DNA from: an uncultured bacterium
Lineage (GTDB): Bacteria; Schekmanbacteria; GWA2-38-11; J061
Assembly (NCBI GenBank): GCA_964549305.1
Contig: CAZJVM010000014.1
Coordinates: 1 to 49,074 of the forward strand
Reading direction: 5' to 3'
Length of the DNA: 49,074 nt
In this document: one piece after another, positions 1-49,074 of the stretch
Numbering within the stretch: position 1 is the stretch's first letter
Layout of the letters: each line of letters starts with the position of its first letter
Notes under the pieces: generated by a model
Told to the model about the DNA's origin: nothing
Databases searched by the model: none
Seen by the model: only the letters and a program-made list of their open reading frames with translations
Made by a program: the position numbers and the translations under genes

Positions 1-57
1 ACGGAGTCGTCCTTTAACAAGGGTTGCAGGCAGTGCCATAATAATGTGGACAACTAA
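1..57 (+). CDS. C-terminal end of a c-type cytochrome (partial, runs off the left edge)
   Basis: Frame 1 reads TESSFNKGCRQCHNNVDN*. A terminal CxxCH lies just before the stop, as in the downstream multiheme genes. Confidence 0.8.
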   Translation, partial: TESSFNKGCRQCHNNVDN

Positions 58-356
58 AAGGGGCTTTCTTTAAGCGATGTGTTACTTTTTTTTAAGAAAG
101 CGATTTGATTGTTTTGAAGAAAATAACTTTTTTTCAAAAGGATATTTTAGCAGACAAAACCTGCCTTTTTTACTTTTCAGATAAAAAAGGTAGGATATTC
201 TCCCCTTTTTTTCTCTTTTTTTTCCAAAAAATACCTCTTTTATTATTGTTATTACTGACGATTGCAAGTTGTCTTTTTTCAATTATTATGATTTATTTAT
301 TCTGGACAAGAGAGTTTCTTTATACGTTGATATTTAATACAAAAATGATTTTGAAG

Positions 357-1391
357 ATGAAAAAAAGCTATTTTACAACAATTGGAATTATGTTGTTTTT
401 CTGCCTGTCAACTTTCTGCTACGCGGGAGATTTTCACAGGTTTTCAACTCTCGTCTGCTCAGATTGCCACGTAATGCACGGCTCAAAATCGCATCAATAT
501 GACGGCAGTTCTACTCCCGATACCTCTATCGGAGGACTTGCCCCTTACAGTATGCTTTTGAAGAATAACGAAAATGAACTCTGTCTTTCCTGTCATGACG
601 GAAAAGCCAACAACCCCGATGTGAGAGGCGGAAATACGAATAGCTACATAAGGGCGGCAGGAGCGATTAATGTTTTGGGAGATTCCGGCACTTATGCTGA
701 AAACAAGGGGCATACGCTTGGAATCACGACGCCTCCTCCCGGAGGCATGTGGTCGGGAAACTCGGCGGGCGGGCTTAAATGCAGTCATTGCCACGATGTA
801 CATGGAAACAAATTTTACAGGAATTTAACCAAAAGTCCGGGAAATGCAACAGGAAAAAAAGTAACCTATTCAAAGGGAAGCGGATACAGCGGTACAAAGG
901 CAATTCAGCAGATATCCTCTTCACCTTTGAGCACTCATTACGCGGCGAGCAATATTTTCTACAGGCAGACCACTGTGGGTACTACCGATGACGGACTTTC
1001 AGAGTGGTGTTCCGGATGTCACGACAATATTCACGGTCAGGGAGGAAACGTTAATATGGGTGGTTCGGCATCGGGAGATACGGCATCCGCGGGCGATGAG
1101 TGGTTGAGGCATCCCACGAGAGATGTGACAATGTCCGAAGGGTCAAACAACAAACACATTGACTCGACGCACTGGTTTTCATCTCTTTCATCAAGGGTGC
1201 CTGTTGTTTCACCGTCGGGAGTCATACCGGGCACCTCAACCGGAAGCGACAATGAAGTATTTTGCGGTTCCTGCCACAAGGCGCACGGTTCAGACCAGAA
1301 ATTCGGACTTTTATATGATAATGATTCCACATCGGCAAGAGAAGACGGGTCATCGATGCTTCAGACCTGCCAGCAATGCCATTACAAATAG
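357..1391 (+). CDS. OmcS-like hexaheme c-type cytochrome (putative nanowire subunit)
   Basis: Signal peptide MKKSYF...CYA. Six CxxCH motifs (CSDCH, CLSCH, CSHCH, CSGCH, CGSCH, CQQCH). OmcS-type motifs in order: FH-x6-CxxCHxMH, KGH, PGG, CHDxHG, YRxL, GLSEWCxxCHxxIH, LRHP, CxSCHxAH, C-terminal CxxCH. Start moved from the track's TTG 105 to ATG 357 (345 also possible). Confidence 0.85.
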   Translation: MKKSYFTTIGIMLFFCLSTFCYAGDFHRFSTLVCSDCHVMHGSKSHQYDGSSTPDTSIGGLAPYSMLLKNNENELCLSCHDGKANNPDVRGGNTNSYIRAAGAINVLGDSGTYAENKGHTLGITTPPPGGMWSGNSAGGLKCSHCHDVHGNKFYRNLTKSPGNATGKKVTYSKGSGYSGTKAIQQISSSPLSTHYAASNIFYRQTTVGTTDDGLSEWCSGCHDNIHGQGGNVNMGGSASGDTASAGDEWLRHPTRDVTMSEGSNNKHIDSTHWFSSLSSRVPVVSPSGVIPGTSTGSDNEVFCGSCHKAHGSDQKFGLLYDNDSTSAREDGSSMLQTCQQCHYK

Positions 1392-1397
1392 AAATTT

Positions 1398-2867
1398 ATG
1401 ATAAAGCAGGAAAAAAAGAAAATGATTCAAAAAATATTTTATAGAAACAAAAGATTGCTTTCCATAAGCTTTATTGCTTTAGCGGCGTTTATTGCGGGAG
1501 CATCCTTTTCGGCTTACGCAGGAGGAGTTTATACGCAGACAAAGCACGGCGATTCCGGAAGCGGTGTCCTCAGGGACAGCAACATTCCAAAGGCAGACTG
1601 CAGGCAGTGCCACGATGAGCACAATGCGGGCGGTATAGCAAATACTTATGCCCTCTTCACAGCAAACACAAACGCGCTTTGCTTTACTACATCAGGCGCA
1701 AGTCCTTGCCACAATTCCGCAAGCGCGCTTGGGTTATTTCAGGGCTCAACAAAATACGGAGATTCTTCGCACGCCACGGATTCGCAGACTCTTTGGCCGG
1801 GACCCGACCCTGCCGCAAGGTCCGCGGGAGACAGTGGAAAGTGTGTTAACTGCCACTCCCCGCACGGTTATGAGGATGGAAGCGGACTTATACCCTCACA
1901 AAGCGTAAAAAGAGAGGAAAGTCTTTGCCTTACCTGCCACGATTCAAACGGGCCCGCTTCAACAGATATTCAGACTGATATTACTAAAACTTACAGACAT
2001 CCGGCGACCAATTACAACGGCAGGCATTCTCAGGATGAGGGAGGTACTTCGTCAAATTACGGAACGACTCCCACGAACAACAGACACGCGGAATGTGTTG
2101 ATTGCCACAACCCGCATATAGCTGCAGTTGATTCGCCGGCGCCCACTGCCCCCACGATGCCCCTTTCATTAAAAGGTGTGGGGCGAATAAAGGTAAGCAA
2201 CGGGTCGGCAGGTAATCCGCCATCATTTACCTATGCTTCACCTTCTAATACTTCAACCCCTTTAAGGGAATATCAAATATGCTTTAAATGCCACTCCTCG
2301 TGGACTACTCAGCCATCGGGACAGCCGGATTTATCAGTGGCATTCAACACAAACAATCTTTCTTATCACCCGGTAGAGGGTCAGGGGAAGAATCTTAATA
2401 TAAATCCCAATGCCTTTGTGAACGGATGGTCAGACACTGATAAAATGTACTGTTCAGATTGTCACGGAAGCGACAGCGGTACTGTCAACGGACCGCACGG
2501 CTCTACATATAATTTTATCCTTAAAAATAATTATGTTCAAAGTTCAGGCAGCAGAACTATGTCTTCAAACGAGATATGTTTCAACTGCCATCGCTATGAT
2601 ACTTATGCGAATGACAATGCAAGTAAAACTGTTAAAAAGTACAGCCGTTTTAAAGAACACGACAAGCACGTGGCAAAAGAAAAATTTCCCTGTTATACGT
2701 GCCACGACAGCCACGGCTCGACAACAGATGCCCACCTCATAGTAATAGGAAGAAACCCCGGTCCCGCAGATTATCAGGAATATTCGAACGGCGGAAACTG
2801 TAAGGCAAACGGGGGGCAATGCCACGATGGCAAATATGAAAACTACGATGTTGAATATCCAAGATAA
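1398..2867 (+). CDS. Secreted multiheme cytochrome c (8 CxxCH plus CX8CH and CX6CH)
   Basis: Signal peptide ending AYA. Eight canonical motifs plus CFTTSGASPCH and CKANGGQCH. Ser/Thr/Gly/Asn-rich. Alternative start at 1422. Confidence 0.9.
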   Translation: MIKQEKKKMIQKIFYRNKRLLSISFIALAAFIAGASFSAYAGGVYTQTKHGDSGSGVLRDSNIPKADCRQCHDEHNAGGIANTYALFTANTNALCFTTSGASPCHNSASALGLFQGSTKYGDSSHATDSQTLWPGPDPAARSAGDSGKCVNCHSPHGYEDGSGLIPSQSVKREESLCLTCHDSNGPASTDIQTDITKTYRHPATNYNGRHSQDEGGTSSNYGTTPTNNRHAECVDCHNPHIAAVDSPAPTAPTMPLSLKGVGRIKVSNGSAGNPPSFTYASPSNTSTPLREYQICFKCHSSWTTQPSGQPDLSVAFNTNNLSYHPVEGQGKNLNINPNAFVNGWSDTDKMYCSDCHGSDSGTVNGPHGSTYNFILKNNYVQSSGSRTMSSNEICFNCHRYDTYANDNASKTVKKYSRFKEHDKHVAKEKFPCYTCHDSHGSTTDAHLIVIGRNPGPADYQEYSNGGNCKANGGQCHDGKYENYDVEYPR

Positions 2868-4320
2868 AACAAAAGATAAACTCACACATCTTCCAATAAT
2901 TCTACTTATTGCCGGATTTTTCCTTTGTAATTTACTTTCCTGCGAACAATTGATTACGGCAGTGAAGGAGACTCAGAATAAAAGCAGGACAAACAGAGAT
3001 GCAGGCAAGATAGTTCTCTATTTTAACGGTGCTGAAAAAACTTCGATCAACCTTACTATGACAATTGAAGGTGTAAAGGTAAAGTCTGACCGTGATGAAT
3101 GGAAGGATATAAACATTCCACAGCTTGAAATAAATTCAATAAAAACTACGGGAAAGCAGGTTCGTCTCGGTGAGATTTTTATGGAGTCGGGAAAATATAA
3201 AGGTGTTGAAGTTACAGTTTCTGAAGCAAAGATGATTGAGGATGGAAAGGAAAAAGAGCTTCTTGATGTGGATGAGAAAAAGCAGGTCTTCATTCCTTTT
3301 GAATTTAATGTTCTGCCTGAGATGAACACTCCTCTTTTTATTCACTGGGATCCTGTAAAATCGGTAAAGGTCAATTATATTTTTGAGCCCATTTTCAAGG
3401 TTTCCACCAAGAAATTTGAAGTTAGGGGTGTTATGGCTTATGTGTCAAATGAAGGGTCCGGCAATATTTCACTAATTGACAGGTCGTCAAGAAGGGTCGT
3501 TTCCGTAATAGAGGTTGAATCCGCTCCCAAGGGAATGGTTGCAACTCCCGACGGAACAAGGATTTTTGTGGCGAATTCCGGCTCTGACAGCATATCGGTT
3601 ATTGATACCAACTCAAACAGGGTGCTTCAGCACATAAACCTTGAATCAGGGTCAGGACCCGAAGAAATAGCGATACTTCCCGACGGAAGCAAGCTATACA
3701 CGGCAAATTACAGGAGCAATTCCGTATCCGTTGTCGATGCGCGCAGTTTTCAACTTTTAAGGACAATCGGAGTTGGTGTTTCTCCCGTTGCCCTCGATGT
3801 TGACAGAAGGGGAAGAAGGGTTTATGTGGCAAACAGCAGGTCAAACGATGTAAGCGTGATTGATGTCCTAAGGGATGCAATTATTGAATCGTCCATCTCT
3901 GTCGATTCATCTCCGAAGGACATTAAAGTTGACCGAGATGACGGCAGAGTCTATGTTGCCTGCTATAATTCAAATAATGTCGATATAATTTCTCCTTCCT
4001 CACTGACTGTGGAAAAAAGACTTAATACGGGAAATTCTGTTGTCGCGATTACCGAAGACAGGAGAAGACCCTCGATAATATATTTTTTTCAGCAGTATCC
4101 TGACAGGATTGTGCAGTTTGACACTATTTCAAACTTTGCTATTCATACTTTGCCTGTAAGGGGAGTTGTGAGAAATATAGAAATAGATGAGGACAGAGGC
4201 AAGATTTATGCCGTGATGCAGAATGATAATGAGGTTGCGGTAATCAATAAGCTTTCAAAAATTGTAGAATGGAAGGCGGATGTGGGCAGGAAACCTTATG
4301 ATATTGTCATTTTAAGATGA
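2848..4320 (+). CDS. Lipoprotein with N-terminal DUF4382-like domain and YVTN-type beta-propeller (OscD-like)
   Basis: Lipobox LLSC. Repeated blades YVSNEGSGNISLID, FVANSGSDSISVID, YTANYRSNSVSVVD, YVANSRSNDVSVID. Start uncertain (2827, 2848 or 2851). Confidence 0.8.
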   Translation: MLNIQDKTKDKLTHLPIILLIAGFFLCNLLSCEQLITAVKETQNKSRTNRDAGKIVLYFNGAEKTSINLTMTIEGVKVKSDRDEWKDINIPQLEINSIKTTGKQVRLGEIFMESGKYKGVEVTVSEAKMIEDGKEKELLDVDEKKQVFIPFEFNVLPEMNTPLFIHWDPVKSVKVNYIFEPIFKVSTKKFEVRGVMAYVSNEGSGNISLIDRSSRRVVSVIEVESAPKGMVATPDGTRIFVANSGSDSISVIDTNSNRVLQHINLESGSGPEEIAILPDGSKLYTANYRSNSVSVVDARSFQLLRTIGVGVSPVALDVDRRGRRVYVANSRSNDVSVIDVLRDAIIESSISVDSSPKDIKVDRDDGRVYVACYNSNNVDIISPSSLTVEKRLNTGNSVVAITEDRRRPSIIYFFQQYPDRIVQFDTISNFAIHTLPVRGVVRNIEIDEDRGKIYAVMQNDNEVAVINKLSKIVEWKADVGRKPYDIVILR

Positions 4321-4383
4321 CTATATTAAAGAAAAAAGTGAAATTTTTATCTCTTTAAGGTTTTTTTGAAATTTAGCTAAGTT

Positions 4384-6516
4384 ATGAAAAAGAGTATTTT
4401 AGTTTTTTTTTTATTTATTACATTTGTTCCTGTTGCGTGGGGAATTGACGGGTTTTCTACCATCGATTACACCATCAATGAAAATGAAACAGGCAAGGAA
4501 TCAATAGACAATGCGGATTTTAATCAGGTGTACGATTTGAATGTAAACAAAGACATAACGAGTATGTTGAGACTTCGCTCGAGTTTGAGGTTCACAAGGT
4601 TTGACCAAAGGACAAACACCGAAGGAGTGAAGAAAAGGACTACCAATGAAGTTTTGCAACCCTATCTTGAGGTTAATTTTTCAGGACCTAAATATAACAT
4701 TAATTCGGGATACAGGAGAAGTGAAACTTCGATTTTTAATTTCGGAAGCAGTGCGGTGAAGAATATTGACAACAACTTTTTCATAAGGTCTTTCTTCAAT
4801 CCTTTTCCCAATTTACCTGTTTCTCTTCAGTTTGAAGATAATCACTCATATGACGACCTTAAACCGAGGGAGAGAAGCGCCGAAAATACCAGACTCCTGA
4901 CGAATGTGGGATATTCAATTTATCAATTCACTTTTAACTATAACTTTAACAAACAGCTAAATGAGAATAAAATAAACGGCATTGTTTCAAATGTGGACAA
5001 TAACACTATAAACCTTTCCTATAATGATACTTTTCTTAATGAGATGTTTACCATATCGTCGAGTTTCGTTTCCAATATGACAAGATCTGAGCAGGATGTT
5101 GATATTGAAAGCTCAACAGCGGCGCAAAATGTGAATATAGAACTTCTTCCGGTAAAAGGGCTAAAAAAGAATAATGACAGAACCCCGAAAACAGGAGAGC
5201 TTGAAAACGAGTCTTTTCTTATAGACAATGACTTTTCCGAAGGTGTCGTAGATATTGGAAGCGGAGAAAAAGGGGAAGATACTGCCATAGGAGTTGAACT
5301 TTTTACACCACAGACCGCTAAAGTGCTTGTCATTCATATGAGCAACAACTTTGACTCTTCCCTTCAATCCTTTTTTGCCTTCAGGATATATGTGCGGGAG
5401 TCTGACAATGGGGATTGGAGTCTTGTGAAGTTTTCCAGGAATCCGCAATATAATCAGCCTGAAAGGGATTTTGAAATAAAAATACCCGGGGATGTTACGG
5501 CAAAATACGTTAAAGCGGTTGTAGTTTCAAACAGCACCACTGAAGCGCTTGTAAGTGAGGTTCAGGTTTTGGGACCTGCCGGTTCGGGACGGGAGAAAAA
5601 GATTGTCTCCACATCAAATGTTCAGACCATTAATGCCAATGTTTCCTTTTCTCCACTCGAATATCTAACCTTCGGATTCAATATGGACCGCACGAAAAGC
5701 AAGAATGCGTCTCCCACGAGAATACAGAGAAACGGAACGCAGACCTGGAGACTTGCTTTCAATCCCAATAAATATTTCGATATCAATTCAAGCTTTCAGC
5801 AATCTTTTACGAAGTTCGAAAGGCAGGATGCTGATGATAGCGGCAACAGTATTCTTACTCTCTCGTGGGGAATGACTCCTCTCGAAACGTTATATACAAG
5901 CGTTAATTATCTTATTAATCAGAGCGATACAGAGTCAGAGGAGGTTTCGCGCAACAAGACAATCAACTGGAATCTCGAAGCCAATATATACAGAAATCTC
6001 GATTTTCAGTTAACCTATACAAATACGAGAAATAAATCATTCGAAGAAGGGACTAAAAACAGGGTTGATACGGTTTCGATCAATTTAAACTCTGACCTGA
6101 CGGACAGACTTCAGGGTATATTCGGATATACATGGCGTGAAGCTAAAAGTTACGGAAAAGATGAACCCCGTCTGGTTTTCTCAAATGACGCATTTTTATT
6201 TTTTACTTATACCTTAAGCGGTAATTTCAATCTCAATGCCCGGTATAATTACCAGAAATCAGCGGAAATGAATAACTTTCAGCAGGCATACACCATAGAC
6301 TGGGTGATTATTCCCAAATTATCGGCTTTCATGTCATACACAAGGACAAATGAAAATTCGGATATTACAAACACAAACAATTCTGAAAATATGATTTATG
6401 AACTTCGATGGTTTGTAAATCGCTCGATAGACATAAGGTTAAGCTATCAACTTACTCGCAGTCTTGATAACAATGAGGTTACAAGATATTTTGTTCAGGG
6501 AAATGTGAGATTTTAA
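4384..6516 (+). CDS. Outer-membrane beta-barrel protein with an inserted discoidin/galactose-binding-like domain (OscE-like)
   Basis: Signal peptide, alternating amphipathic strands, and C-terminal Phe (VQGNVRF, BAM-type signal). Central segment ...GDWSLV...TAKYVKAVV...VSEVQV resembles an F5/8-type fold. Confidence 0.75.
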   Translation: MKKSILVFFLFITFVPVAWGIDGFSTIDYTINENETGKESIDNADFNQVYDLNVNKDITSMLRLRSSLRFTRFDQRTNTEGVKKRTTNEVLQPYLEVNFSGPKYNINSGYRRSETSIFNFGSSAVKNIDNNFFIRSFFNPFPNLPVSLQFEDNHSYDDLKPRERSAENTRLLTNVGYSIYQFTFNYNFNKQLNENKINGIVSNVDNNTINLSYNDTFLNEMFTISSSFVSNMTRSEQDVDIESSTAAQNVNIELLPVKGLKKNNDRTPKTGELENESFLIDNDFSEGVVDIGSGEKGEDTAIGVELFTPQTAKVLVIHMSNNFDSSLQSFFAFRIYVRESDNGDWSLVKFSRNPQYNQPERDFEIKIPGDVTAKYVKAVVVSNSTTEALVSEVQVLGPAGSGREKKIVSTSNVQTINANVSFSPLEYLTFGFNMDRTKSKNASPTRIQRNGTQTWRLAFNPNKYFDINSSFQQSFTKFERQDADDSGNSILTLSWGMTPLETLYTSVNYLINQSDTESEEVSRNKTINWNLEANIYRNLDFQLTYTNTRNKSFEEGTKNRVDTVSINLNSDLTDRLQGIFGYTWREAKSYGKDEPRLVFSNDAFLFFTYTLSGNFNLNARYNYQKSAEMNNFQQAYTIDWVIIPKLSAFMSYTRTNENSDITNTNNSENMIYELRWFVNRSIDIRLSYQLTRSLDNNEVTRYFVQGNVRF

Positions 6517-6535
6517 AAACAATACGGGGAATATT

Positions 6536-7123
6536 ATGGACCAGAAAAAGATTTTTTCACGAATCTTGCTTTTGATGTTTATTCTCGGATATGCATCTTT
6601 CTTTACATCCTGCACAGGTATGCCTGCAAACTATATTAATCCGAATTATGATTTCAGTCTCATTCAACGAGTTGCGGTGCTTCCAATAGAGAATTTTACG
6701 CAGGATTCAAATGCCGGCGAAAAGGTCAGGAGAGTTGTGATTAACGAAATACTGTCGGCGCAGTTTGTCGATGTAGTTGAAGTAGGGCAGGTTAACAGAT
6801 CAATTAAGGAAGCGAAGGTAGAGGATTTGTTTAATATGAGCAAGGAAGACTATAAGAAAATAGGCGAAGCGCTCGGAACGCAACTGCTGATGAAAGGTTC
6901 GATTGAACATTACGGGACGAGTAATATAGGAGGTGCTTCCATTGCCGAGATATCAATTTCACTTGCCGCGATAGACATAACAAGCGGGGAAATCGTGTGG
7001 TCTTCAAGCGGTTCGAAATCAGGTTCGGGAATTATCGAGAAAATATTCGGCATTTCGGGACCGTCTTTGCCCTATGTTACAAGAGAATGTGTTACAGACC
7101 TTGTTAATACGCTTTTTGAATAG
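6536..7123 (+). CDS. CsgG/LpoB/GNA1162-like lipoprotein (OscF-like)
   Basis: Lipobox FTSC, RVAVLPIENFT, and ID..SGEIVWS, typical of the TolB-N/CsgG fold. Confidence 0.75.
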   Translation: MDQKKIFSRILLLMFILGYASFFTSCTGMPANYINPNYDFSLIQRVAVLPIENFTQDSNAGEKVRRVVINEILSAQFVDVVEVGQVNRSIKEAKVEDLFNMSKEDYKKIGEALGTQLLMKGSIEHYGTSNIGGASIAEISISLAAIDITSGEIVWSSSGSKSGSGIIEKIFGISGPSLPYVTRECVTDLVNTLFE

Positions 7124-7162
7124 AGAGATACAGATTTAGATATCAATCACATTTTAAATACA

Positions 7163-8269
7163 ATGTTTAAAAGAATTCGAATTATATTTTTTGCTATGGT
7201 TTTTATATCATTTGCCCCCCTTTCCTCTTATTCAAATGAAAAGCCGTCAAATGACAAAAAAATCGTTATTCTTCCTTTCGAAAATATCGGAGGACAGCAA
7301 ATCGGATGGAATTTCGTACTTGAAGGAATTACAGGTGTACTTGAAAAAAAAGGGTATGATGTCATAGGAAACGATGCCGTGGAAGAGTATCTCCTTGAGG
7401 AGAGAATAAGGGATACTTCCAATGTCAATGCGCAATTTCTGTCAAAAATCGGAGAAATTACCGATGCGCCGTATATATTGGTCGGTATGATAGACATAGT
7501 AGTAGTTTCCGACGAGAATCCTCAGTTTGGGCTTTCTGCCCGTGTACTCTCTGCAGATGAGGGCAACATTCTTTGGGGAGATTATGTGGGAAGCACCGGT
7601 GACAGTACCAAAATGATACTCGGTCTGGGAAATATAAAATCTTTGGAAAAATTAACGTTGAAGGTAATAAGTGAACTTTTTTCATCTCTTCCATCTTCGG
7701 GAAGAGGTTTTTCGGGAAAAAGTTTCATAGATAGGATAAGTTTGATGAAATTTTTTCCGAATGTTGACTACTATTTTGCCAGTGATTTTATTAAAGAAAC
7801 GGAAAATTTCAAAATTGCCGTTCTTCCCTTTGAGAACCAAAGTGAAAGAAAAGGCGCCGGGAAGGTATTGAAGGATATTTTTGCCGTGTCTCTCTTCAAG
7901 TACAGCACCTTTGACGTGATAGATTCCGGAAGAATAAAAAACGCAATCGTAACTTATAAGGTTTGGCCATACGGGGGAGTTGACATTCAGGGATTAAAAA
8001 AAATTAAATCTGCCCTTGACGCAGATGCCGTGATAATTGGAATAGTGGAGGAATACAATGAGGGTCTTAAAAAGGGCGGTATCACTTCGTCTCCTGAACT
8101 TACCGTATATGCGAGAATGGTTGATACCGAAAACGGCAGAATTCTCTGGACTTCCGAGGATACGGAAAAGGGAGATGATACTCAGATAGTCCTTGATTTT
8201 GGTGTAATTAAATCCGCAGTCGAACTTGCTAAAAGACTTACTAAAAAAATGATTTTTACTATGAGGTAA
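7163..8269 (+). CDS. Exported protein with two tandem CsgG/TolB-N-like domains (OscG-like)
   Basis: Signal peptide and two repeats: KIVILPFEN...GNILW and KIAVLPFEN...GRILW. Confidence 0.75.
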   Translation: MFKRIRIIFFAMVFISFAPLSSYSNEKPSNDKKIVILPFENIGGQQIGWNFVLEGITGVLEKKGYDVIGNDAVEEYLLEERIRDTSNVNAQFLSKIGEITDAPYILVGMIDIVVVSDENPQFGLSARVLSADEGNILWGDYVGSTGDSTKMILGLGNIKSLEKLTLKVISELFSSLPSSGRGFSGKSFIDRISLMKFFPNVDYYFASDFIKETENFKIAVLPFENQSERKGAGKVLKDIFAVSLFKYSTFDVIDSGRIKNAIVTYKVWPYGGVDIQGLKKIKSALDADAVIIGIVEEYNEGLKKGGITSSPELTVYARMVDTENGRILWTSEDTEKGDDTQIVLDFGVIKSAVELAKRLTKKMIFTMR

Positions 8270-8276
8270 AAGCTGA

Positions 8277-9950
8277 ATGAAAAAGATATTTTTAATCGCA
8301 CTGCTGACAATGATTATTTTTACCGGTTGCAGAAAACCCTCCTACTGGCTTATGGAAGCTAAAATGGCTGAAGTTAACGGAGACGTGATTACTTTTGAGG
8401 ATATGAAGCGTAGTTTTGAAAAAGGACACGGAGGGCACGGCGCTTTCCTCGAAGACTATCAAATGAACAGGGATTACCTGCAGAAAGTTATCGATAAACA
8501 GCTTCTTGTACAGGAAGGGCTTAGAATAGGGCTTGATAATGATGAAGACATAAAAGGTATTATTGCCGATTCTTATAATTCTAAAATTTCTGAGCTGTTC
8601 TATACTGAGGAAATAGTTAAAAAAGTTGAAGTTTCCGAAGCTGAAATCAAGGAAGCATTCGAGAAAAGCAGAAATCTTTATAAAGTCCTTTATATCCTTG
8701 TAAAGGAGGAAGATGAAGCAAAGAAGGCGATTGAAAGAATCGAGGCAGGAGAGGATTTTGAAAAGGTTGCCGCAGAAGTTTCCATACACGATTCCAAAAA
8801 GCGCGGAGGTAAGCTTGGGTTTATAATGTGGGGCGTTATGGTTAAAGAGGTAGAGGATGTTGTTCTTACAATGAATGAAGGTGAAATGAAAGGGCCTATT
8901 AAAACAAAGGACGGATGGGCAGTAGTGAAGGTCATTGCAGTAGAGCCTCAGGACGAGGTTGAATACGAAAAAGTAAGGGAAGAGCTTAAAAACAAGGTTT
9001 ATAACCGAAAACTTGAGAATTCGAAAATGGAGTATTTTGACAGTGCGAAGAAGAGATATAATGTTGAAATATTCGAATCGAAAATAAATCCTGAACTCTT
9101 TATCGGTGATGAAAATAATGACGAGATGATTCTGGCGTCGGGCGAAGGTTTAAAATTAAGCGTCGCGGATTTGAAAAAACTTATAAACTTCAAGAAACTA
9201 AATAAATTCCCTTATGAGGAAAAAGCTAAAATCGTTAAGGAATTTTTAAACAATTCGGTCGAGAATAAACTTCTTGTTCTTGATGCGGAAAGCAAGGGAT
9301 ATGATAAAAGGGATGAAATTGTAACTTATGTGAGGCGCATAAGAGATTCGCTTATTACAAAAAAACTGCTTGCTACAATTGTTTCAAGAGACCTTGAGGT
9401 GACTGAAGAGGATATTAAATCGTTCTATGATGAACATAAGGATAAATACAGGTTGATTGAGAAAGTTTTTCTCAATGTCATAGTTGTTGACAGTGAAGAG
9501 AAGGCAGAGGAAATAAAAAAGCAGATTGAAGAAGAGGCAGTTGATTTTGCAGAAATTGCAATAAAAGAGTCAAAAGATTCTTCAGGTGTAAACGGAGGAC
9601 AGGTTGGTTGGTTTTCAAGAAAAGAGTTAAGGCCTTCCGTAGTTGATATGATTTTTTCACTGAAGGAGAATAAAATCGGAATTGCTAAAGAAGAAGATGG
9701 AGTTTATATTTTGATGGTTTCAAAGAGGCAGGAGGAAAGACAGCAGGAATTTGATGAAGTTAAACCTAAAGTTAAAAAAGACGCTTACAAGAAAAAATAT
9801 AATGATAACCTCAAAAAATGGACTCAGAAACTTAGAGAAACTGCTGAGATAAACATTCATAATTGGAGTCTTAAGAAAGCGACAAAAGTTTACGTGAAAG
9901 AAAATTATGATAAGAAAGAAAAGATGAAGAAAATGGGGGGTGGGCATTAG
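8277..9950 (+). CDS. SurA/PrsA-like foldase lipoprotein with two PpiC rotamase domains (OscH-like)
   Basis: Lipobox FTGC. Two parvulin signatures: FEKVAAEVS.HDSKKRGGKLG and FAEIAIKESKDSSGVNGGQVGW. Confidence 0.88.
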   Translation: MKKIFLIALLTMIIFTGCRKPSYWLMEAKMAEVNGDVITFEDMKRSFEKGHGGHGAFLEDYQMNRDYLQKVIDKQLLVQEGLRIGLDNDEDIKGIIADSYNSKISELFYTEEIVKKVEVSEAEIKEAFEKSRNLYKVLYILVKEEDEAKKAIERIEAGEDFEKVAAEVSIHDSKKRGGKLGFIMWGVMVKEVEDVVLTMNEGEMKGPIKTKDGWAVVKVIAVEPQDEVEYEKVREELKNKVYNRKLENSKMEYFDSAKKRYNVEIFESKINPELFIGDENNDEMILASGEGLKLSVADLKKLINFKKLNKFPYEEKAKIVKEFLNNSVENKLLVLDAESKGYDKRDEIVTYVRRIRDSLITKKLLATIVSRDLEVTEEDIKSFYDEHKDKYRLIEKVFLNVIVVDSEEKAEEIKKQIEEEAVDFAEIAIKESKDSSGVNGGQVGWFSRKELRPSVVDMIFSLKENKIGIAKEEDGVYILMVSKRQEERQQEFDEVKPKVKKDAYKKKYNDNLKKWTQKLRETAEINIHNWSLKKATKVYVKENYDKKEKMKKMGGGH

Positions 9951-9951
9951 A

Positions 9952-11967
9952 ATGAAAAATAATTTAGAGAAATTTAAAGGAGTTGTTTATTTGATAATAG
10001 TTGTTGCGGGATTTTCACTAATTCTTTCTTCCTGCACCGGAGGCAAGAGGAGGCGGGCAAAGAGGTTTGCTCCGAAGTCCTGCATTGACGCGGGATGCCA
10101 TCCCACAAAACTTGCGGAATATACTGCAAAGCCCTTTGTGCACAGCCCTTTAAATGATAAAAAATGCGAATCCTGCCATAAAAAACACGGGCTTGTAGGT
10201 GCTGTAATTCTTGTAAAGGAAAAAAATGAAGAATTATGTTACTCCTGCCACAGCGAGGAAAATGTAAATTTTAAAGCGAAACAGTATGCCCATAAACCGA
10301 TAAAGGAAGGCGAATGTCTTAAATGTCACACCCCTCACTCAGCGGATAATAAGGCTCTGCTCAAAACTTCGGAGCTTGAATCCTGTTTTCAATGCCACGA
10401 AAAGAGTAATTTCGAGGGAAATGTGAAGCACGAACCTTTAAACAAGTCCTGTCTCGATTGCCATGACCCTCATTCATCGAACAACCTTTACGGATTGAGA
10501 GAGGATACAAAAACTCTTTGTCAGAAATGTCATGATGCTGATAGTGCCAGAATCAAAGACACTCATTACGGGTATTCGCTAAAAGGGACTGATTGTACCA
10601 CCTGTCATACACCTCACGCATCGGATAAGAAAGCTTTGCCGAGAAGGTATTTTCATCCGGCAATGGAATTTAATGATTGCAATGTATGCCATAACGAGAA
10701 AAATTCTTCAGACCCTATAGGAGTGAAAGAAGCACAGCCGGATTTATGCCTGCAGTGCCATTCAACTGATAAGGTTGGCGAATCAAAGAGAATTACCGAT
10801 GAGACCTTTAACAAAAATGTTGTTCATCCTGCCTTTGCCGATGAAAACTGTACTTTCTGCCATTCACCGCACGCAAGTGACTATCCGGGCAGATTTGTGT
10901 CTAAACAGAAGGATGTATGCTTCCAGTGTCACGATGATATACAGGAGTTATACGAAAAGAAATATTCACACCTTAAAATAGAAGATATTGTTTGCAGTGA
11001 CTGCCACGAACCACATGCTTCGGATAACACCTTCAGGCTTCGTGAAGAGGAAAATGAAGTATGCTTTCAGTGTCACGATGACAAAAAGGATATTCTGGAA
11101 AATGCCGGTACCATTCATCCGGGATATGTCGATGAACCTTGCACAACCTGTCACAATCCTCATGGCACCGATTATAAGAGTTTTGTTAAATCCGATTTAA
11201 ATACACTCTGTTTTGAGTGTCACGATACTGAAGGATTTGAAGAAATATTCAAGCATAAACCCGTAAGAGAGGGACAATGTACGGAATGTCACAATCCTCA
11301 CGGAAACGATAACACAACACTTCTCAGGGAATATCCGCCTGACCTGTGTAAAAAGTGCCACAGCAAGCTTTTTGTAAGGATGCAGGGACTTGACCAGCGC
11401 CATCCTCCTTTTGATGATGGAGAGTGCTTGACCTGCCATCTCCCGCACTCGAGCAGGATAAGCGCCAGTCTTTTGTCGGATAAGATGCCGCAGGTATGCG
11501 ACCAGTGTCATGATTTTGTTTCAGAAGGGAATGCGTCAACGAGTTTTCACGAGCCGGTTAAGGAAAGCTGTATCCTCTGCCACGACCCTCACGGGAGTGC
11601 AAACGGCAGACAGCTAAAAACGACAGGAAATGATTTGTGCCTTTCCTGCCATACGGAAAAGAAAGAGCTGATAGAAAATAAAGAGGCAACGATTCATACA
11701 GCGGTTGCAGGTGGTGAATGCCTTGACTGTCATGTGCCTCATTTTTCTGATAATCCCAAACTGCTCTCGGAAAATGTTCCGGCGCTTTGCAGCAATTGCC
11801 ATGATTTTGCCGATGAATATCTCGTTGAAAAACATAGGAATATAGATATAAGTGAAAGCAAGTGTACCGGATGTCATGACCCGCACGGTTCAATGGACAG
11901 AAAACTTTTTAAAGAAAACCAGCACAAACCTTTTGCCGAAAGGTCTTGTGATTCGTGTCACGAATAA
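9952..11967 (+). CDS. 26-heme cytochrome c lipoprotein (25 CxxCH plus one CX4CH; OscI-like)
   Basis: Lipobox LSSC. Motifs counted by hand. Paired-CxxCH repeats of the form H.P....CxxCH.PH...LCxxCH. ATG at 9952 follows the upstream stop directly. Confidence 0.92.
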   Translation: MKNNLEKFKGVVYLIIVVAGFSLILSSCTGGKRRRAKRFAPKSCIDAGCHPTKLAEYTAKPFVHSPLNDKKCESCHKKHGLVGAVILVKEKNEELCYSCHSEENVNFKAKQYAHKPIKEGECLKCHTPHSADNKALLKTSELESCFQCHEKSNFEGNVKHEPLNKSCLDCHDPHSSNNLYGLREDTKTLCQKCHDADSARIKDTHYGYSLKGTDCTTCHTPHASDKKALPRRYFHPAMEFNDCNVCHNEKNSSDPIGVKEAQPDLCLQCHSTDKVGESKRITDETFNKNVVHPAFADENCTFCHSPHASDYPGRFVSKQKDVCFQCHDDIQELYEKKYSHLKIEDIVCSDCHEPHASDNTFRLREEENEVCFQCHDDKKDILENAGTIHPGYVDEPCTTCHNPHGTDYKSFVKSDLNTLCFECHDTEGFEEIFKHKPVREGQCTECHNPHGNDNTTLLREYPPDLCKKCHSKLFVRMQGLDQRHPPFDDGECLTCHLPHSSRISASLLSDKMPQVCDQCHDFVSEGNASTSFHEPVKESCILCHDPHGSANGRQLKTTGNDLCLSCHTEKKELIENKEATIHTAVAGGECLDCHVPHFSDNPKLLSENVPALCSNCHDFADEYLVEKHRNIDISESKCTGCHDPHGSMDRKLFKENQHKPFAERSCDSCHE

Positions 11968-11976
11968 CTTAGGAGA

Positions 11977-13281
11977 ATGATTAAAATAATGGCTTTGCTG
12001 AGGAATAAGAAAATGAAGAAAACGAGAAATGCTTTATCGTATTTGGTGTTGTTGTTGATTCCTTGTATGTTTTTTGTTTTGAGCTCCGCGGATATTTCGC
12101 AGGGAAAAGTGAAACTCAAAAATAAGGGCTCTAAGTTATGTTTTACATGCCATGACAAGATGAAAATAAAACTTAAAGCGAAAAAATATCTGCATAATCC
12201 TGTTAAAAGGGGAGAGTGCGAAAAATGTCACAATCCACATACATCGGTTGACACCAAGCTTCTGAATGTAAAATCTGATGAACTATGCCTGAGTTGCCAC
12301 ACTGAAAAGAAGGCGGAATTTAATGATACGACTGTTCACCCTCCGGTCAGGGAAGGAAATTGTCTTGCTTGTCACGATCCTCATGGGGCGTCAAACAAAT
12401 TTTTTCTCAAAAAAATGGGAAGTGACTTGTGCTTTAATTGTCATGTTGACTTTAAATTAGTGGATCTTTCATCTACACATCCTCCTTTTAAACTTGGACA
12501 GTGCCTTAAGTGCCATAACCCTCATGCTTCAAAAGAAAAATCATTATTGAAAAAAGCGCCGAGAGAACTTTGCCGTTCCTGTCATAATATAGGAAGCAGT
12601 GCACTAAGATCAAAGCACTGGAAAGTTAATCTTAAAGAGGTTAACTGTACTTTTTGTCATGACCCTCACGGCGCGAAGAATTTAAACCTTGTTAAAGATT
12701 ATGTGCATCCGCCTTTTGAAGACCGTGAATGTGATGCCTGTCACTCTAATTTGGCGAAAGACCCGCAGTTGTTTGTCGAAGAGGGGAAAGATTTATGCCT
12801 GCAGTGTCATGGAGAAAAGGAATCAATTTATGATGATAAAGTAATTCATCCTCCTGTTGCTGACGGAGATTGTGTCGCCTGTCATACCCCGCATGCTTCG
12901 AATTATGAAAAATTGCTTGTCAGGGGCGAAAGGGAAATGTGTCTTGATTGTCATACCGAAAAGAGAAGTCAGTTTGTTAACACCAAATATTCACACCCTG
13001 CAGACGCAGGCGGTGGAAAGTGCACAATTTGTCACACTCCTCATTCATCACAGGGCAGATATCTCTTTAAAGGTGAAATCCTCTCTGTTTGTGAAACCTG
13101 CCATAAAACGCAGGGAACATTTACACATCCCGTGGGAGTGGGGATAATTGACCCGAGAGACAAGACTTCACAGGTGACCTGTATTTCCTGCCACGATGTT
13201 CATGGTACTAACTATGAATATTTTCTCAGGGGTGAAAGGAAGAGAGACCTTTGCGTAATGTGTCACCAGAGTGCGGGATAG
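11977..13281 (+). CDS. 16-heme periplasmic cytochrome c (OscJ-like)
   Basis: AGGAG RBS, signal peptide, and 16 CxxCH motifs counted in paired-CxxCH repeats. Confidence 0.92.
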   Translation: MIKIMALLRNKKMKKTRNALSYLVLLLIPCMFFVLSSADISQGKVKLKNKGSKLCFTCHDKMKIKLKAKKYLHNPVKRGECEKCHNPHTSVDTKLLNVKSDELCLSCHTEKKAEFNDTTVHPPVREGNCLACHDPHGASNKFFLKKMGSDLCFNCHVDFKLVDLSSTHPPFKLGQCLKCHNPHASKEKSLLKKAPRELCRSCHNIGSSALRSKHWKVNLKEVNCTFCHDPHGAKNLNLVKDYVHPPFEDRECDACHSNLAKDPQLFVEEGKDLCLQCHGEKESIYDDKVIHPPVADGDCVACHTPHASNYEKLLVRGEREMCLDCHTEKRSQFVNTKYSHPADAGGGKCTICHTPHSSQGRYLFKGEILSVCETCHKTQGTFTHPVGVGIIDPRDKTSQVTCISCHDVHGTNYEYFLRGERKRDLCVMCHQSAG

Positions 13282-13332
13282 AATATAATCAGATTTAAGT
13301 ATTTGTTTTATTGTGAAATATCCAATATAGCT

Positions 13333-13373
13333 ATAGTCGGCAGTTTTTTTTCTGCCGGCTATTCTTCTTTTTT
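13333..13373 (+). terminator. Probable intrinsic terminator closing the cytochrome cluster
   Basis: Stem ATAGTCGGCAG / CTGCCGGCTAT (one G-U pair) followed by TCTTCTTTTTT. Confidence 0.65.
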
Positions 13374-13664: not shown

Positions 13665-14504
13665 ATGAAAAAAACTATTTTAACTTTTACGATAGTCGCC
13701 TTGGCGGTTTTTTTATCGGCGAGCTTTAATTTTGCAAATGCAACAATTCTTGGGAATCATTTTGGAGTCACATTGAGTGTTGATAGTAACGGTTCATTCG
13801 ATAATTCATGGATACCAACCCCTTCAACGGCAGACTATGTAACAGGCGACTGGAAGTCAACTTCGGGGGCACCCAATCCGTCTCCCCATGGGACACAAGG
13901 AGAAGCCTTTGATGTAGAAGCGATTTATATCGATGATGCGGGAACAGATTTTCTCTTTGCAATCGTTACATCAATTCCCGAGGCAGGTTATGATGGAGCA
14001 GACTTTGGTTGGTCGGGATATCACTTCAATCCCGGTGATATTCGCATTGATGCCGGAGGAGGCAAATATGAATACGGTGTTAAAGTCACCGGAGCAAATC
14101 AGGGCGATATATTGAAAAATGCCACATGGAGTTACGATAAGGGAAACGCAGGTTATAAAAACGGATATCCGAATTCCGGTTCAACGATGTATAACAATAT
14201 GCATGTGGGGACTGGTTTAAAAACAGGTGATGTGACATCATTTGCCTATTATGATGCGCAGATTACAGAAAGAAATTATGGGACTTATGTGATTGAGGGA
14301 ATCATCTCAAAATCATCGCTTGGCAATCCGGGAAAGGGTTCGTCAATTGGATTGGAGTTTTCTCCTGACTGCAATAATGATTGGCTTTCTCTCACGGGAG
14401 ATATTGACGGTTCGTCTATTCCTGTTCCCGAGCCATCAACTTTTCTTCTTTTAGGCGGAAGTATTGGGATAGTTGTTCTTTTAAGAAAGAAGATTAAGTT
14501 GTAA
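13665..14504 (+). CDS. PEP-CTERM sorting-domain surface protein
   Basis: RBS AGGAG, signal peptide, and C-terminal VPEPSTFLLL + TM helix + RKKIK. Confidence 0.93.
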   Translation: MKKTILTFTIVALAVFLSASFNFANATILGNHFGVTLSVDSNGSFDNSWIPTPSTADYVTGDWKSTSGAPNPSPHGTQGEAFDVEAIYIDDAGTDFLFAIVTSIPEAGYDGADFGWSGYHFNPGDIRIDAGGGKYEYGVKVTGANQGDILKNATWSYDKGNAGYKNGYPNSGSTMYNNMHVGTGLKTGDVTSFAYYDAQITERNYGTYVIEGIISKSSLGNPGKGSSIGLEFSPDCNNDWLSLTGDIDGSSIPVPEPSTFLLLGGSIGIVVLLRKKIKL

Positions 14505-37887: not shown

Positions 37888-38919
37888 TTAACTTCCCTGA
37901 ACATGACAGTTTTTGCAAAGGTCTCTGACATTTGTTCCGTCGCCGTCCTCGGTCACCGTCGACGTACCTGCCTGAAAGATTAGCCCGAAACTATTTGCGT
38001 TTCCGTGTGCTCTGTGACAGGTTAAGCATGTAGGTGTTTCATTGCCGTCATATGCGCCCGCAGTCCAACTACCATCGGGGTCCATAACTCTTACAGGATT
38101 ATTAACTGTATTTAATGTTGCAAGGCTCGAATGTCCACCACCTATGCTTCCTATGTCAACACCTGCCGCAGGATGGCGAATGAATGCTCCGCTTGCTACG
38201 CTTCCGCCGACTTCACTTCCTCCAACATCACCGTGAAAATCCGTATGACATTTTTTGCAGAATTCGCCGATACCGGATTTAGTTGAGTTTGGTTCATTGA
38301 GATTGATTCCGGCGATGGTTCTCAATCCTACGCCTGCTTCAAAAATATCTTTGGTAAGATCATTTGTTCCTGCAGCATAGCTAATTCCCAATGTAGGAGT
38401 TGCTCCGCCTGCATCGGGTTTAAGGTTTCTGTAATTGTCTATATTCGTATTTCCTCCCACATCTCCTGATCCAAGGTCTTGACCGTGATGCTGGTGACAG
38501 TCAACACATTCAAAACCACTGCTGTTGCTCCATGTTCCTCCGGGGGTTGTTGCTGTGCTATTGATGGTATGTCCCATATACTCTGCGTAAGAACCGCTTC
38601 CGCCTACTTTGTTTAACGCGCCTGCAGACCTTTCCGTTGAACCCGTGTCATTGTTTCCCATTACATCAGGGCCTATTCCATTGTCATGGCAAGTGAGACA
38701 TAAATCATTCGAAGAACCACCCGACTTTAAAAGGTGTGCCGCAGGTGTGTAGCTATAACCTCCACTTCCGGAACCATAATCATGCGCACTGCTTGCGTGC
38801 ATGGTATGGCACTGATTACAAACAAGACTTGCACCATCATGATAATCACCTGCATATATTGTTGAACCAACCCCAAGTGCCACTACAGTTACTGCAAAGA
38901 TAAGAACTAATTTCCTCAT
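37888..38919 (-). CDS. OmcS-like hexaheme c-type cytochrome, second paralog
   Basis: RBS AAGGAGG before MRKLV; signal peptide ending IYA; six CxxCH. Motifs YH-x6-CNQCHTMH, MGH, PGG, YRNL, GIGEFCKKCHTDFH, IRHP, CLTCHRAH and terminal LCKNCH. Colinear with the 357-1391 protein. Confidence 0.88.
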   Translation of the reverse strand: MRKLVLIFAVTVVALGVGSTIYAGDYHDGASLVCNQCHTMHASSAHDYGSGSGGYSYTPAAHLLKSGGSSNDLCLTCHDNGIGPDVMGNNDTGSTERSAGALNKVGGSGSYAEYMGHTINSTATTPGGTWSNSSGFECVDCHQHHGQDLGSGDVGGNTNIDNYRNLKPDAGGATPTLGISYAAGTNDLTKDIFEAGVGLRTIAGINLNEPNSTKSGIGEFCKKCHTDFHGDVGGSEVGGSVASGAFIRHPAAGVDIGSIGGGHSSLATLNTVNNPVRVMDPDGSWTAGAYDGNETPTCLTCHRAHGNANSFGLIFQAGTSTVTEDGDGTNVRDLCKNCHVQGS

Positions 38920-39099
38920 GGCAATCCCTCCTCCTTTTTTAGTTTGAGACAAATTAAATTTACTCAATACTAGAAAATCACAGGATTTGAATATGCTTAT
39001 TTTTGCTGAATATTTTAACATTAATGTAAATACTATAAATGTTAAAAGAGTTTGTAAAGTTGTTAAAATCATTCTTTATCTCCTTTGTTGTTTTATATA

Positions 39100-48940: not shown

Positions 48941-49074
48941 TTTGAAAGCCTAAGCCAGAACCTGTATGACATTTTAAGAAATATTGACGGGAACGGAGAA
49001 GAACTGAAATTGAACGTCATTTTGATTTCCGTTGAAAGCCTTAATGCAAAATATTTGACAAGGTTTGGGGGGAC
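48941..49074 (+). pseudogene. Internal fragment of an LTA-synthase/sulfatase-family gene, lacking its N-terminus (runs off the right edge)
   Basis: Frame reads FESLSQNLYDILRNIDGNGEELKLNVILISVESLNAKYLTRFGG. It is preceded by an in-frame TGA at 48938-48940, and nadA ends only 28 bp before the frame. Confidence 0.55.

Follow-up and report, generated by a model that had tools for sequence, protein, structure and literature searches.

A relative of the Geobacter OmcS filament gene set in a Schekmanbacteria genome, with a short hexahaem cytochrome of the OmcS superfamily

A contig from an uncultured member of the Schekmanbacteria (GCA_964549305.1, CAZJVM010000014.1) carries an operon of multihaem cytochromes and outer-membrane partners. 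The operon is related to the Geobacter OmcS filament gene set and so represents a further instance of a system already known, not a new one. Anaerobes are thought to be able to exchange electrons with other cells, minerals and electrodes by means of cytochrome filaments and the outer-membrane proteins that go with them. Clusters of this type are already in print under two readings, as a nanowire assembly cluster (osc) and as a porin-cytochrome conduit (OetABI). On balance, we consider it probable that this is an osc/oet-type extracellular-cytochrome operon that works in the way proposed below. New here are the PelC homology of its lipoproteins, a model that gives its outer-membrane barrel about 28 strands and a loop-domain insert, and an apparent exchange of short and canonical filament subunits on one backbone within one bacterial family.

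The window, by which we mean the whole stretch of 49,074 nucleotides that was analysed, starts at the first base of the contig. Its positions 1-13362 hold the cut tail of a cytochrome gene and nine complete co-oriented genes, followed by a terminator (Table 1), and this order and orientation are those given by the original prediction. A recount of the haem motifs in the four complete cytochromes also agreed with the predicted total (6+10+26+16 = 58). Among the open frames of 80 codons or more in the whole 2.94-Mb genome, just 32 contain at least three CxxCH motifs; therefore the density of haem motifs in the cluster is not due to chance. The cluster had also been called complete, which the sequence does not support: the contig begins within the cluster, whose 5' border lies beyond the contig start, and completeness therefore cannot be shown. 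Indeed, a genome of the same genus has two further OmcS-like genes upstream. Pfam and NCBIfam scans identified a gene for a PEP-CTERM protein after the operon.

Table 1. Genes and other features of the cytochrome operon, in window positions
Feature	Positions	Strand	Basis
3' end (18 codons and stop) of an OmcS-like cytochrome gene	1..57	+	Frame +1 ends in CxxCH; cut by contig start
Short OmcS-superfamily hexahaem cytochrome with signal peptide; candidate extracellular/filament subunit	345..1391	+	6 CxxCH
Companion cytochrome (cyt8) with signal peptide	1398..2867	+	8 CxxCH and two wider-spaced haem-type motifs
YVTN-type beta-propeller lipoprotein	2827..4320	+	TIGR02276, Lactonase and YNCE matches; lipobox Cys in N-terminal signal
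Large outer-membrane beta-barrel with beta-rich insert of ~160 residues	4384..6516	+	AF2 model, signal peptide, C-terminal Phe
lpo1, PelC/LpoB/GNA1162-like outer-membrane lipoprotein, one domain	6536..7123	+	Pfam LpoB and GNA1162-like; PelC profile match
lpo2, secreted protein with two GNA1162/CsgG/PelC-like domains	7163..8269	+	Pfam GNA1162-like and CsgG
Lipoprotein foldase, two parvulin (PpiC) domains and SurA-like N-terminal region	8277..9950	+	Rotamase families; lipobox in translation
26-haem lipoprotein cytochrome, MtrA/DmsE-type paired-CxxCH modules	9940..11967	+	25 CxxCH and one CX4CH; alternative start ATG at 9952
16-haem cytochrome, module type as in 26-haem protein	11977..13281	+	16 CxxCH; plain signal peptide
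Terminator-like hairpin closing the operon	13333..13362	+	11-pair stem with 6 G-C pairs, then T-rich tail; 3' of last stop codon

The hexahaem cytochrome is, on the evidence of its sequence, a member of the OmcS superfamily that belongs to a short and divergent class. We found 230 homologs of about 340 aa each, and the family profile searched against the PDB gave OmcS (6ef8) as its top match (E 7.1e-13, aligned from OmcS residue 1; runner-up E 0.015). The alignment of the short-class profile with true OmcS-type proteins by hhalign had a probability of 99.5% (E 1.4e-22) over 250 columns, with haem motifs 1-5 collinear. Seven histidines outside the motifs (H34, H48, H126, H156, H233, H259, and H317) are invariant or conserved in at least 90% of the family, and conserved non-motif histidines of the hexahaem pair with histidines of OmcS-type proteins in both the profile and the hhalign alignments. 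Among these, H48 is invariant (31/31 sequences) and aligns to the OmcS histidine located three residues past haem motif 1. We take His16 of OmcS to be the ligand to the haem of the neighbouring subunit.

With OmcS (structures 6ef8 and 6nef) the hexahaem has in common the number and order of its haem motifs (six), the conserved histidines outside them, and a signal peptide at the N-terminus. However, the hexahaem is about 30% identical to OmcS-type proteins in the hhalign match, it is shorter (about 325 aa in its mature form), and the stretch between haem motifs 5 and 6 is much reduced. We rejected its assignment as an OmcS ortholog, as the single sequence (phmmer) had no match in the PDB at E<=1, OmcS included, and the protein is roughly 80 residues shorter. 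A search of the genome for a long OmcS-type gene found none, the best match (E 8.8e-7) being a fragment of the short class. OmcS forms filaments, whereas the short hexahaem is a candidate filament subunit; an AF2 model of it computed without haems was unusable (pLDDT 49). According to passages of a paper on Geobacter cytochromes, relatives of OmcS are not callable as nanowire formers by sequence. Hence, the divergent and shorter OmcS-type subunit of the original prediction holds at the level of superfamily and class, and not at that of orthology.

Related genomes provided insights into how this subunit relates to the genes downstream. The whole cluster is present in G807, the genome of the same genus, with identities of 67-81%. 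There, three tandem OmcS-like genes precede the accessory genes. Directly upstream of its hexahaem ortholog lies a frame of 392 codons with seven CxxCH motifs (short-class profile E 1e-52), which ends in nearly the same tail as window positions 1-57, at the same place. In G808, which belongs to the same family, a tandem pair of hexahaems can be aligned to 6ef8 from end to end (residues 1-407; E 5.3e-113 and 4.8e-109). These OmcS orthologs are located directly upstream of a backbone that begins with the propeller and barrel and leads to lpo1, lpo2, the PPIase, and the 26-haem and 16-haem cytochromes. Meanwhile, G806 of the same phylum has an OmcS-type gene inside the same backbone (OmcS-type HMM 3e-167). 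The presence of canonical OmcS orthologs on the backbone of the window in G808 and G806 ties this backbone to the osc cluster of Geobacter. The barrel is present in four of the five genomes of the phylum.

The short class, together with its companion genes, is widely distributed among MAGs labelled with various phyla: a total of 80 loci was found, with many phyla, and in no case Geobacter, named in the titles of their records. Loci were found with the hexahaem alignment, and gene content was counted in the 52 with 9 kb or more of sequence downstream of the OmcS-like gene. In these, PelC/LpoB-like genes were found in 42 loci, a companion cytochrome in 40, a cytochrome with at least 16 haems in 38, and a detected barrel in 25. 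The propeller was detected in 10/52 and the PPIase in 7/52; therefore, these two are not universal parts. The novelty once expected of the cluster is accordingly low, as the type has been published as widespread and the short class occurs across so many named phyla. Among the matches listed for a literature query pairing Schekmanbacteria with cytochrome, neither word appeared in a title or abstract.

The accessory proteins were assigned to families with varying clarity. The propeller lipoprotein matched TIGR02276 (beta_rpt_yvtn, E 5.1e-42, four stretches) together with the Pfam families Lactonase (1.1e-13) and YNCE (3e-11). The foldase matched Rotamase_2 (5.9e-31), Rotamase (8.4e-28), and Rotamase_3 (2.1e-27) in two stretches each, and SurA_N_3 below the cut-off (6.2e-5). 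For lpo1, in which the lipobox cysteine is invariant (16/16 orthologs), matches were obtained to LpoB (5.5e-8) and GNA1162-like (3.7e-6), and its family profile matched the PelC chains 5t11 (2.1e-10) and 9h80_C (3e-10, positions 1-178 of 191). Two stretches of lpo2 matched GNA1162-like (6.3e-10), and as a single sequence it gave weak matches to GNA1162 and PelC in the PDB (E about 0.2). CsgG scored 26.4 bits for lpo2 (E 5.2e-6) and 20.5 bits for lpo1, against a cut-off of 20.8, and was outscored in these proteins by GNA1162-like, LpoB, and PelC. The PelC homology of lpo1 suggests a ring-under-barrel architecture for what had been called the channel-like part of the cluster.

The barrel had no match in Pfam or NCBIfam, MtrB/PioB and PelB included, and scans of the nine cluster proteins against both databases found no TPR or PelB family. 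An exhaustive HMMER search recovered 313 full-length relatives of the barrel, compared to only one in a word-indexed search. Its AF2 model is confident (pLDDT 91.2). DSSP assigned 11 long strands, an insert at about residues 240-405, and 17 long strands, about 28 in all. Among solved chains, MtrB comes closest (Z 21.4, rmsd 6.4, 337 aligned residues; Foldseek TM 0.40/0.43), ahead of TonB receptors at Z 19.9, and no PelB chain is among the fold matches listed. The original prediction had set an MtrB-type porin against a secretion channel; MtrB is indeed the closest solved fold, but by a narrow margin. The insert had no match to Pfam families or to PDB sequences, and the only lead is an F5/8 type C domain with an Atlas score of 0.83.

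Among the remaining cytochromes, the companion displayed two wider-spaced motifs whose counterparts in aligned orthologs are CxxCH or CX3-4CH motifs, and its profile had weak matches in the PDB (9yuq_N 1.4e-6, MtrA 6r2q_A 1.4e-4, and OmcE 7tfs 1e-3). The 26-haem protein (675 aa) matched Paired_CXXCH_1 in 13 stretches (E 3.3e-135) and the DmsE-family model TIGR03508 with 300.1 bits, against a cut-off of 192.2. It aligns end-to-end with a protein of 694 aa and 26 CxxCH from a Desulfuromonas sp. MAG (33% identity over 669 aa, E 2e-116), in which a CxxCH stands opposite its single CX4CH. The 16-haem protein matched Paired_CXXCH_1 in nine stretches (E 1.2e-89) and TIGR03508 with 193 bits, against the same cut-off. 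Its homologs of ~1050-1064 aa contained 42 CxxCH motifs in 4/4 cases counted, which equals 26+16, and the fusion of forty-two haems in a single polypeptide is the common form.

Regarding the proteins of the osc cluster, we take OscD to be a propeller, OscE-G to be channel-type proteins, and OscH to be a PPIase, pairing names with folds. The omcS-companion (osc) cluster of Geobacter sulfurreducens, GSU2504-GSU2493, is said to have been described as a nanowire assembly cluster by Shen et al. 2025 (Cell Chem Biol 32:239). Passages of citing papers describe an OmcS-like hexahaem (GSU2501) and an eight-gene block (GSU2500-2493), in which GSU2495 is a protein of ~70 kDa with 26 haems, and report genetic links of the block to the maturation and secretion of OmcS filaments. 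A passage of PMC13194489 assigns folding to OscH, secretion to OscE/F/G, and morphology to OscD. As in that cluster, OmcS-family hexahaem genes come first in the operon, directly upstream of an accessory block with a propeller, channel-type outer-membrane proteins, a PPIase, a ~70 kDa 26-haem cytochrome, and a further large cytochrome. The window differs in that its subunit belongs to a short class unlinked to OmcS by single-sequence search, in the companion cytochrome with 8-10 motifs between hexahaem and propeller, and in having no gene between the 16-haem gene and the terminator. The evidence for orthology of the accessory proteins to OscD-J is indirect. Still, the predicted fit to the Geobacter block was borne out by the descriptions in citing papers and by the sister genomes, which pair the same backbone with true OmcS orthologs.

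The other published reading is that of Murali et al. 2023 (PMC10553843), passages of which describe OetA as a periplasmic cytochrome, OetI as a porin, and OetB as an extracellular lipoprotein cytochrome. There, OmcS-like genes occupy the omcS/omcT position in the OetABI cluster, and filaments are proposed together with the conduit. An excerpt of PMC12246660 cites Skennerton 2017 for OetABI of syntrophic sulfate reducers. In the descriptions available in these sources, OetABI shares with the window 26- and 16-haem cytochrome genes preceded by a PPIase gene, genes for a beta-propeller and a large barrel, and OmcS-like genes. As in OetABI, the predicted barrel of the window is encoded with a candidate lipoprotein cytochrome (the 26-haem protein, with a lipobox) and a candidate periplasmic one (the 16-haem protein, with a plain signal peptide). 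The propeller gene is described downstream there and lies upstream in the window, and the products are read there as a conduit and not as an assembly machine.

Two further systems are related in part. In the PelBC exporter of Pseudomonas aeruginosa (9h80, 5t11), a lipoprotein gene also adjoins the barrel gene, and lpo1 matches PelC over the whole chain; a passage of PMC12141448 describes a ring of twelve PelC beneath PelB. However, the barrel of the window is far larger and has no PelB match, three PelC-like domains are spread over two genes whereas PelC is one homo-oligomer, the ring in the window is a putative one, and the candidate cargo is cytochromes instead of polysaccharide. MtrCAB of Shewanella (6r2q) resembles the operon in the fold of MtrB, the best structural match of the barrel, and in the MtrA/DmsE-type modules of the large cytochromes. 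It has 10 haems where the window has 26 and 16. An MtrC-type surface decahaem is absent from the operon, which has PelC-like, propeller, and PPIase genes in addition. We rejected an MtrCAB-type complex, as the barrel had no MtrB/PioB match, matches to MtrC/MtrF domains were weak or partial with no decahaem of the MtrC type, and the accessory genes are extra.

Based on these findings, we postulate the following working of the osc/oet-type operon. Its cytochromes would leave the cytoplasm via Sec and acquire their haems in the periplasm, where the parvulin lipoprotein may assist their folding. The PelC-like domains would form a ring beneath the barrel, as PelC does beneath PelB, and the barrel complex would deliver the OmcS-like cytochromes to the surface of the cell or hold them in place at it. 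At the surface these would probably polymerise as OmcS does, with a histidine of one subunit ligating the haem of the next. Meanwhile, the two large cytochromes, with 42 haems between them, may wire the periplasm to the surface cytochromes, possibly via the same barrel. The original prediction of a nanowire secretion and electron-transfer system agrees with the osc-type gene set, but it overstated filament formation and secretion, which are inferred from genes and face a published conduit rival.

In that rival, which we consider unlikely though of real weight, the OetABI reading would apply as a conduit only. The barrel would sheathe a MtrA-like wire of the 26- and 16-haem proteins, stabilised by the PelC-like and propeller lipoproteins, while the OmcS-like and companion cytochromes would act as monomeric surface reductases or acceptors, with no filament passing through the barrel. 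A barrel nearest to MtrB combined with MtrA-like large cytochromes is as compatible with a conduit as with an exporter, and the published description of the same cluster type as OetABI, the scores of both large cytochromes above the DmsE/MtrA-family cut-off, the lipobox on the 26-haem protein, and the frequent fusion of all forty-two haems in one chain argue in its favor. Yet MtrB leads unrelated TonB receptors by just 1.5 Z and lacks a Pfam counterpart in the barrel, the PelC homology points toward an export funnel, the residues for cross-subunit ligation in OmcS appear conserved in the hexahaem, and the Geobacter block is genetically linked to filament maturation and secretion in the citing papers' passages. 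A conduit is, moreover, compatible with filaments, as Murali et al. propose both in the passages noted above.

It seems very improbable that the operon encodes a multihaem redox system that is confined to the periplasm or bound to the cell and has no extracellular role (for example, electron storage or an enzyme-linked chain). The barrel and lipoproteins would then serve an unrelated export, e.g., of polysaccharide as in Pel, in agreement with the PelC homology of lpo1 and the PEP-CTERM gene after the operon. However, the genes are tightly packed on one strand with one shared terminator, and in loci of many phyla the barrel and PelC-like genes occur alongside those for OmcS-like and giant cytochromes. 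Pfam and NCBIfam scans found no polysaccharide synthesis genes in the operon.

Our preferred osc/oet reading admits a bolder and doubtful extension. The short (~340 aa) OmcS-like hexahaems may be a second, taxonomically wider class of filament subunit that is interchangeable with OmcS on one backbone, since either type occurs in sister genera of one family, with the companion cytochrome as a dedicated base or cap. The barrel of ~28 strands, with a surface galactose-binding-like insert and placed over a hetero-oligomeric PelC-like ring, would then be an undescribed apparatus that exports and anchors the haem-loaded filament.

With these findings, the carriers of the osc/oet cluster come to include a small candidate phylum. 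The subunit swap, the PelC homology, and the barrel model do not alter the kind of system, which had been published before. For the barrel, a very large one with an inserted loop domain, a confident model has been gained. Lastly, the natural swap of OmcS and the short class on the same backbone within one family offers a handle on the subunit specificity of this machinery.

The window spans contig C14 from its first base to base 49,074 and opens inside a cytochrome cluster. Bases 1-57, read in frame +1, encode the final 18 residues of a protein with a CxxCH at its end, and nine closely packed open frames follow on the + strand from 345 to 13281, with a terminator-like hairpin 3′ of the last cluster gene. 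In gene order, the four cytochromes of this series carry 6, 8, 25, and 16 CxxCH motifs. The second displays two extra wider-spaced motifs, at columns where its orthologs have CxxCH or CX3-4CH, and the third displays one CX4CH, where an aligned homolog with 26 CxxCH motifs has a CxxCH. The cut cytochrome tail, the nine frames, the hairpin, and the 58 haem motifs of the original prediction were borne out by this analysis; the cluster could not be confirmed as complete, since contig C14 starts inside it. In the genome as a whole (G000; 2.94 Mb, 169 contigs, 41% G+C), three or more CxxCH occur in just 32 of the open frames that reach 80 codons. Past the terminator lies a gene for a secreted protein of 279 residues, whose sorting tail is of the PEP-CTERM type (Pfam E 2.7e-4, TIGR02595 1.8e-4).

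The cluster is a real, conserved operon of an already known kind. The Geobacter omcS region is described as an OmcS-like hexahaem gene, GSU2501, with a block of eight genes behind it, GSU2500-2493, for which a link to the maturation and secretion of nanowires has been reported; GSU2495 is given as a protein of about 70 kDa with 26 haems (bioRxiv 10.1101/2025.11.06.686851). Roles in folding (OscH), secretion (OscE/F/G), and morphology (OscD) are reported for the omcS-companion proteins (PMC13194489). Murali et al. 2023 described the same cluster type as an OetABI porin-cytochrome conduit fed by OmcS-like filaments (PMC10553843), and PMC12246660 credits Skennerton 2017 with an operon that combines 26-haem and 16-haem genes with those for a PPIase and a propeller.

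Main features of the cluster and of related genes in G000
Feature	Location	Strand	Remarks
Short OmcS-like hexahaem	window 345-1391	+	
Companion cytochrome	window 1398-2867	+	
YVTN beta-propeller with lipobox	window 2827-4320	+	
Outer-membrane barrel	window 4384-6516	+	
Lipoprotein, PelC-like	window 6536-7123	+	family profile vs PelC, whole chain, E 2e-10 to 3e-10
Two GNA1162/CsgG/LpoB-kind domains	window 7163-8269	+	same kind as 6536-7123
Lipoprotein, two parvulin domains	window 8277-9950	+	
Terminator-like hairpin	window 13333-13362		
Secreted PEP-CTERM protein	window 13665-14504	+	
Second, stand-alone short OmcS-like hexahaem	window 37888-39072	-	A1 profile E 1e-78
Type II/IV secretion ATPase	window 40583-42478	-	T2SSE E 1e-129
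Third full short OmcS-like copy	contig C5 66991-68061		
Cut short OmcS-like gene	contig C127 2-835	-	cut at same residue as C155
Cut short OmcS-like gene	contig C155 2-832	-	cut at same residue as C127

The first complete gene encodes a hexahaem cytochrome, which as a single sequence had no match in the PDB at E<=1. It has 230 homologs of about 340 residues each, and a profile built from 31 of them (A1) matched OmcS (6ef8) in the PDB at E 7.1e-13, from residue 1 of the mature protein, with the next match at 0.015. Comparison by hhalign with two aligned true OmcS-type proteins of one sister genome gave a probability of 99.5% (E 1.4e-22, 250 columns), with haem motifs 1 to 5 in register between the two classes. 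Seven non-motif histidines are invariant or almost so in the A1 alignment and are paired with histidines of OmcS. One of the conserved histidines, H48, sits three residues past haem motif 1, and its OmcS counterpart is presumably His16, a ligand to a haem of the neighbouring subunit. Judged from these matches and conserved histidines, the hexahaem is a member of the OmcS superfamily and not an OmcS ortholog; its chain is shorter. A long OmcS-type gene was not found in G000. The divergent, shorter subunit that had been proposed holds as a short class of the OmcS superfamily, and its polymerisation into filaments is probable.

Five short-class genes were found in G000, the tail at bases 1-57 being a sixth. 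The stand-alone copy has FMN reductase-like, HTH-methyltransferase, and metallo-beta-lactamase-fold genes as neighbours; near it lies a gene for a secretion ATPase that carries an MshEN domain and, at its C terminus, a double zinc ribbon. Two of the five genes are cut at an identical residue at contig ends. The same-genus genome G807 has the continuation of their sequence type two genes before the 345-1391 ortholog, which points to an assembly break among tandem paralogs and to C127 or C155 as the contig preceding the window. Multihaem cytochromes are abundant in G000 for a 2.9-Mb genome, with further groups of several such genes on each of contigs C42, C88, C57, and C77 (8-14 CxxCH per gene).

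The barrel had no family match in Pfam and NCBIfam scans, and exhaustive HMMER searches retrieved 313 full-length relatives. An AF2 model with 51 relatives as input reached a pLDDT of 91.2, and its DSSP listing shows 11 long strands, an insert of about 160 residues, and 17 long strands. The predicted barrel would hence have about 28 strands, a count taken from this listing rather than from coordinates. By the usual topology rule, a segment after an odd-numbered strand faces outward, so the insert, placed after such a strand, would face outward; F5/8 type C is the sole hint at a family for it (Atlas score 0.83). The best solved match of the model is MtrB (Z 21.4, rmsd 6.4, 337 residues aligned, TM 0.40/0.43), followed by TonB receptors (Z 19.9). 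The 26- and 16-haem proteins are chains of paired-CxxCH modules, and both score above the DmsE/MtrA-family cut-off. Over 669 residues, the former aligns collinearly, at 33% identity, with a Desulfuromonas MAG protein of 26 CxxCH. All four counted homologs of about 1050-1064 residues have 42 CxxCH, and 42-CxxCH frames are numerous in the synteny table of loci.

The phylum is represented in the collection by five species-level genomes, four of which have the barrel, and the closest protein with a named source carries the label Candidatus Schekmanbacteria. In G807 the whole cluster is present at 67-81% identity, preceded by a 7-CxxCH OmcS-like gene whose end resembles window bases 1-57 and, before it, by another short-class gene. 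The same-family genome G808 shares the backbone (propeller, barrel, two PelC-like genes, PPIase, and 26- and 16-haem genes) with four extra genes mid-cluster, and before its propeller stand two tandem hexahaems matching the full 407 OmcS residues (E 5.3e-113 and 4.8e-109). The sister genome G806 has an OmcS-type gene within the same backbone. These gene orders indicate that a single backbone serves both subunit classes, two genomes having it with canonical OmcS and one genus with the short class. The extra genes of G808 (L087:16984 to L088:5813) separate the barrel from the PelC-like genes; one encodes an MFS-spermine/spermidine-synthase-like fusion of about 1005 residues and three encode proteins of about 630-650 residues with C-terminal TPR repeats. 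The window barrel diverges from those of G808 and G806 much faster than its neighbour genes (G000 vs G808 by phmmer: barrel E 9e-14, propeller 2e-47, 26-haem protein 7e-131), a difference that may go along with the switch in subunit class.

When one genome per species was scanned, 175 short-class relatives came up, and 80 loci were kept. Their record titles include Nitrospinota, Chloroflexota, Elusimicrobia, Gemmatimonadota, Armatimonadota, Latescibacterota, Zixibacteria, Krumholzibacteriia, Eisenbacteria, Acidobacteriota, Planctomycetota, Anaeromyxobacter, and others; Geobacter is absent from these 80 titles. Co-occurrence was counted in the 52 loci in which 9 kb or more of sequence follow an OmcS-like gene. 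PelC/LpoB-like genes occur in 42 of these, the companion cytochrome in 40, a cytochrome with at least 16 haems in 38, the barrel in 25 (as detected by insensitive searches), the propeller in 10, and the PPIase in 7; 10 have neither barrel nor PelC-like gene. Four loci (L015, L021, L023, and L035; e.g., L021:9980-15295) contain giant frames, about 1750-1860 codons long and bearing 11-12 CxxCH, that start with a short OmcS-like domain and directly precede the barrel; these seem to fuse the hexahaem and further parts in one protein.

The main alternative to assembly, and a less likely one, is that the operon serves purely as a porin-cytochrome conduit and that its surface cytochromes are monomers; the MtrB-like fold of the barrel and the MtrA-like modules of the large cytochromes favour a conduit. 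Assembly is favoured by the homology to PelC, by the conserved histidine that would bridge subunits, and by the genetics reported for Geobacter. The assembly and conduit readings overlap, and the data fit both. In the reading that we consider the likeliest, and reasonably likely, the operon serves to make extracellular OmcS-family cytochromes, to export or anchor them, and to wire them. A ring of PelC-like domains would lie beneath the large barrel, and the 42 haems of the two large cytochromes would form a wire from the periplasm to the cell surface.
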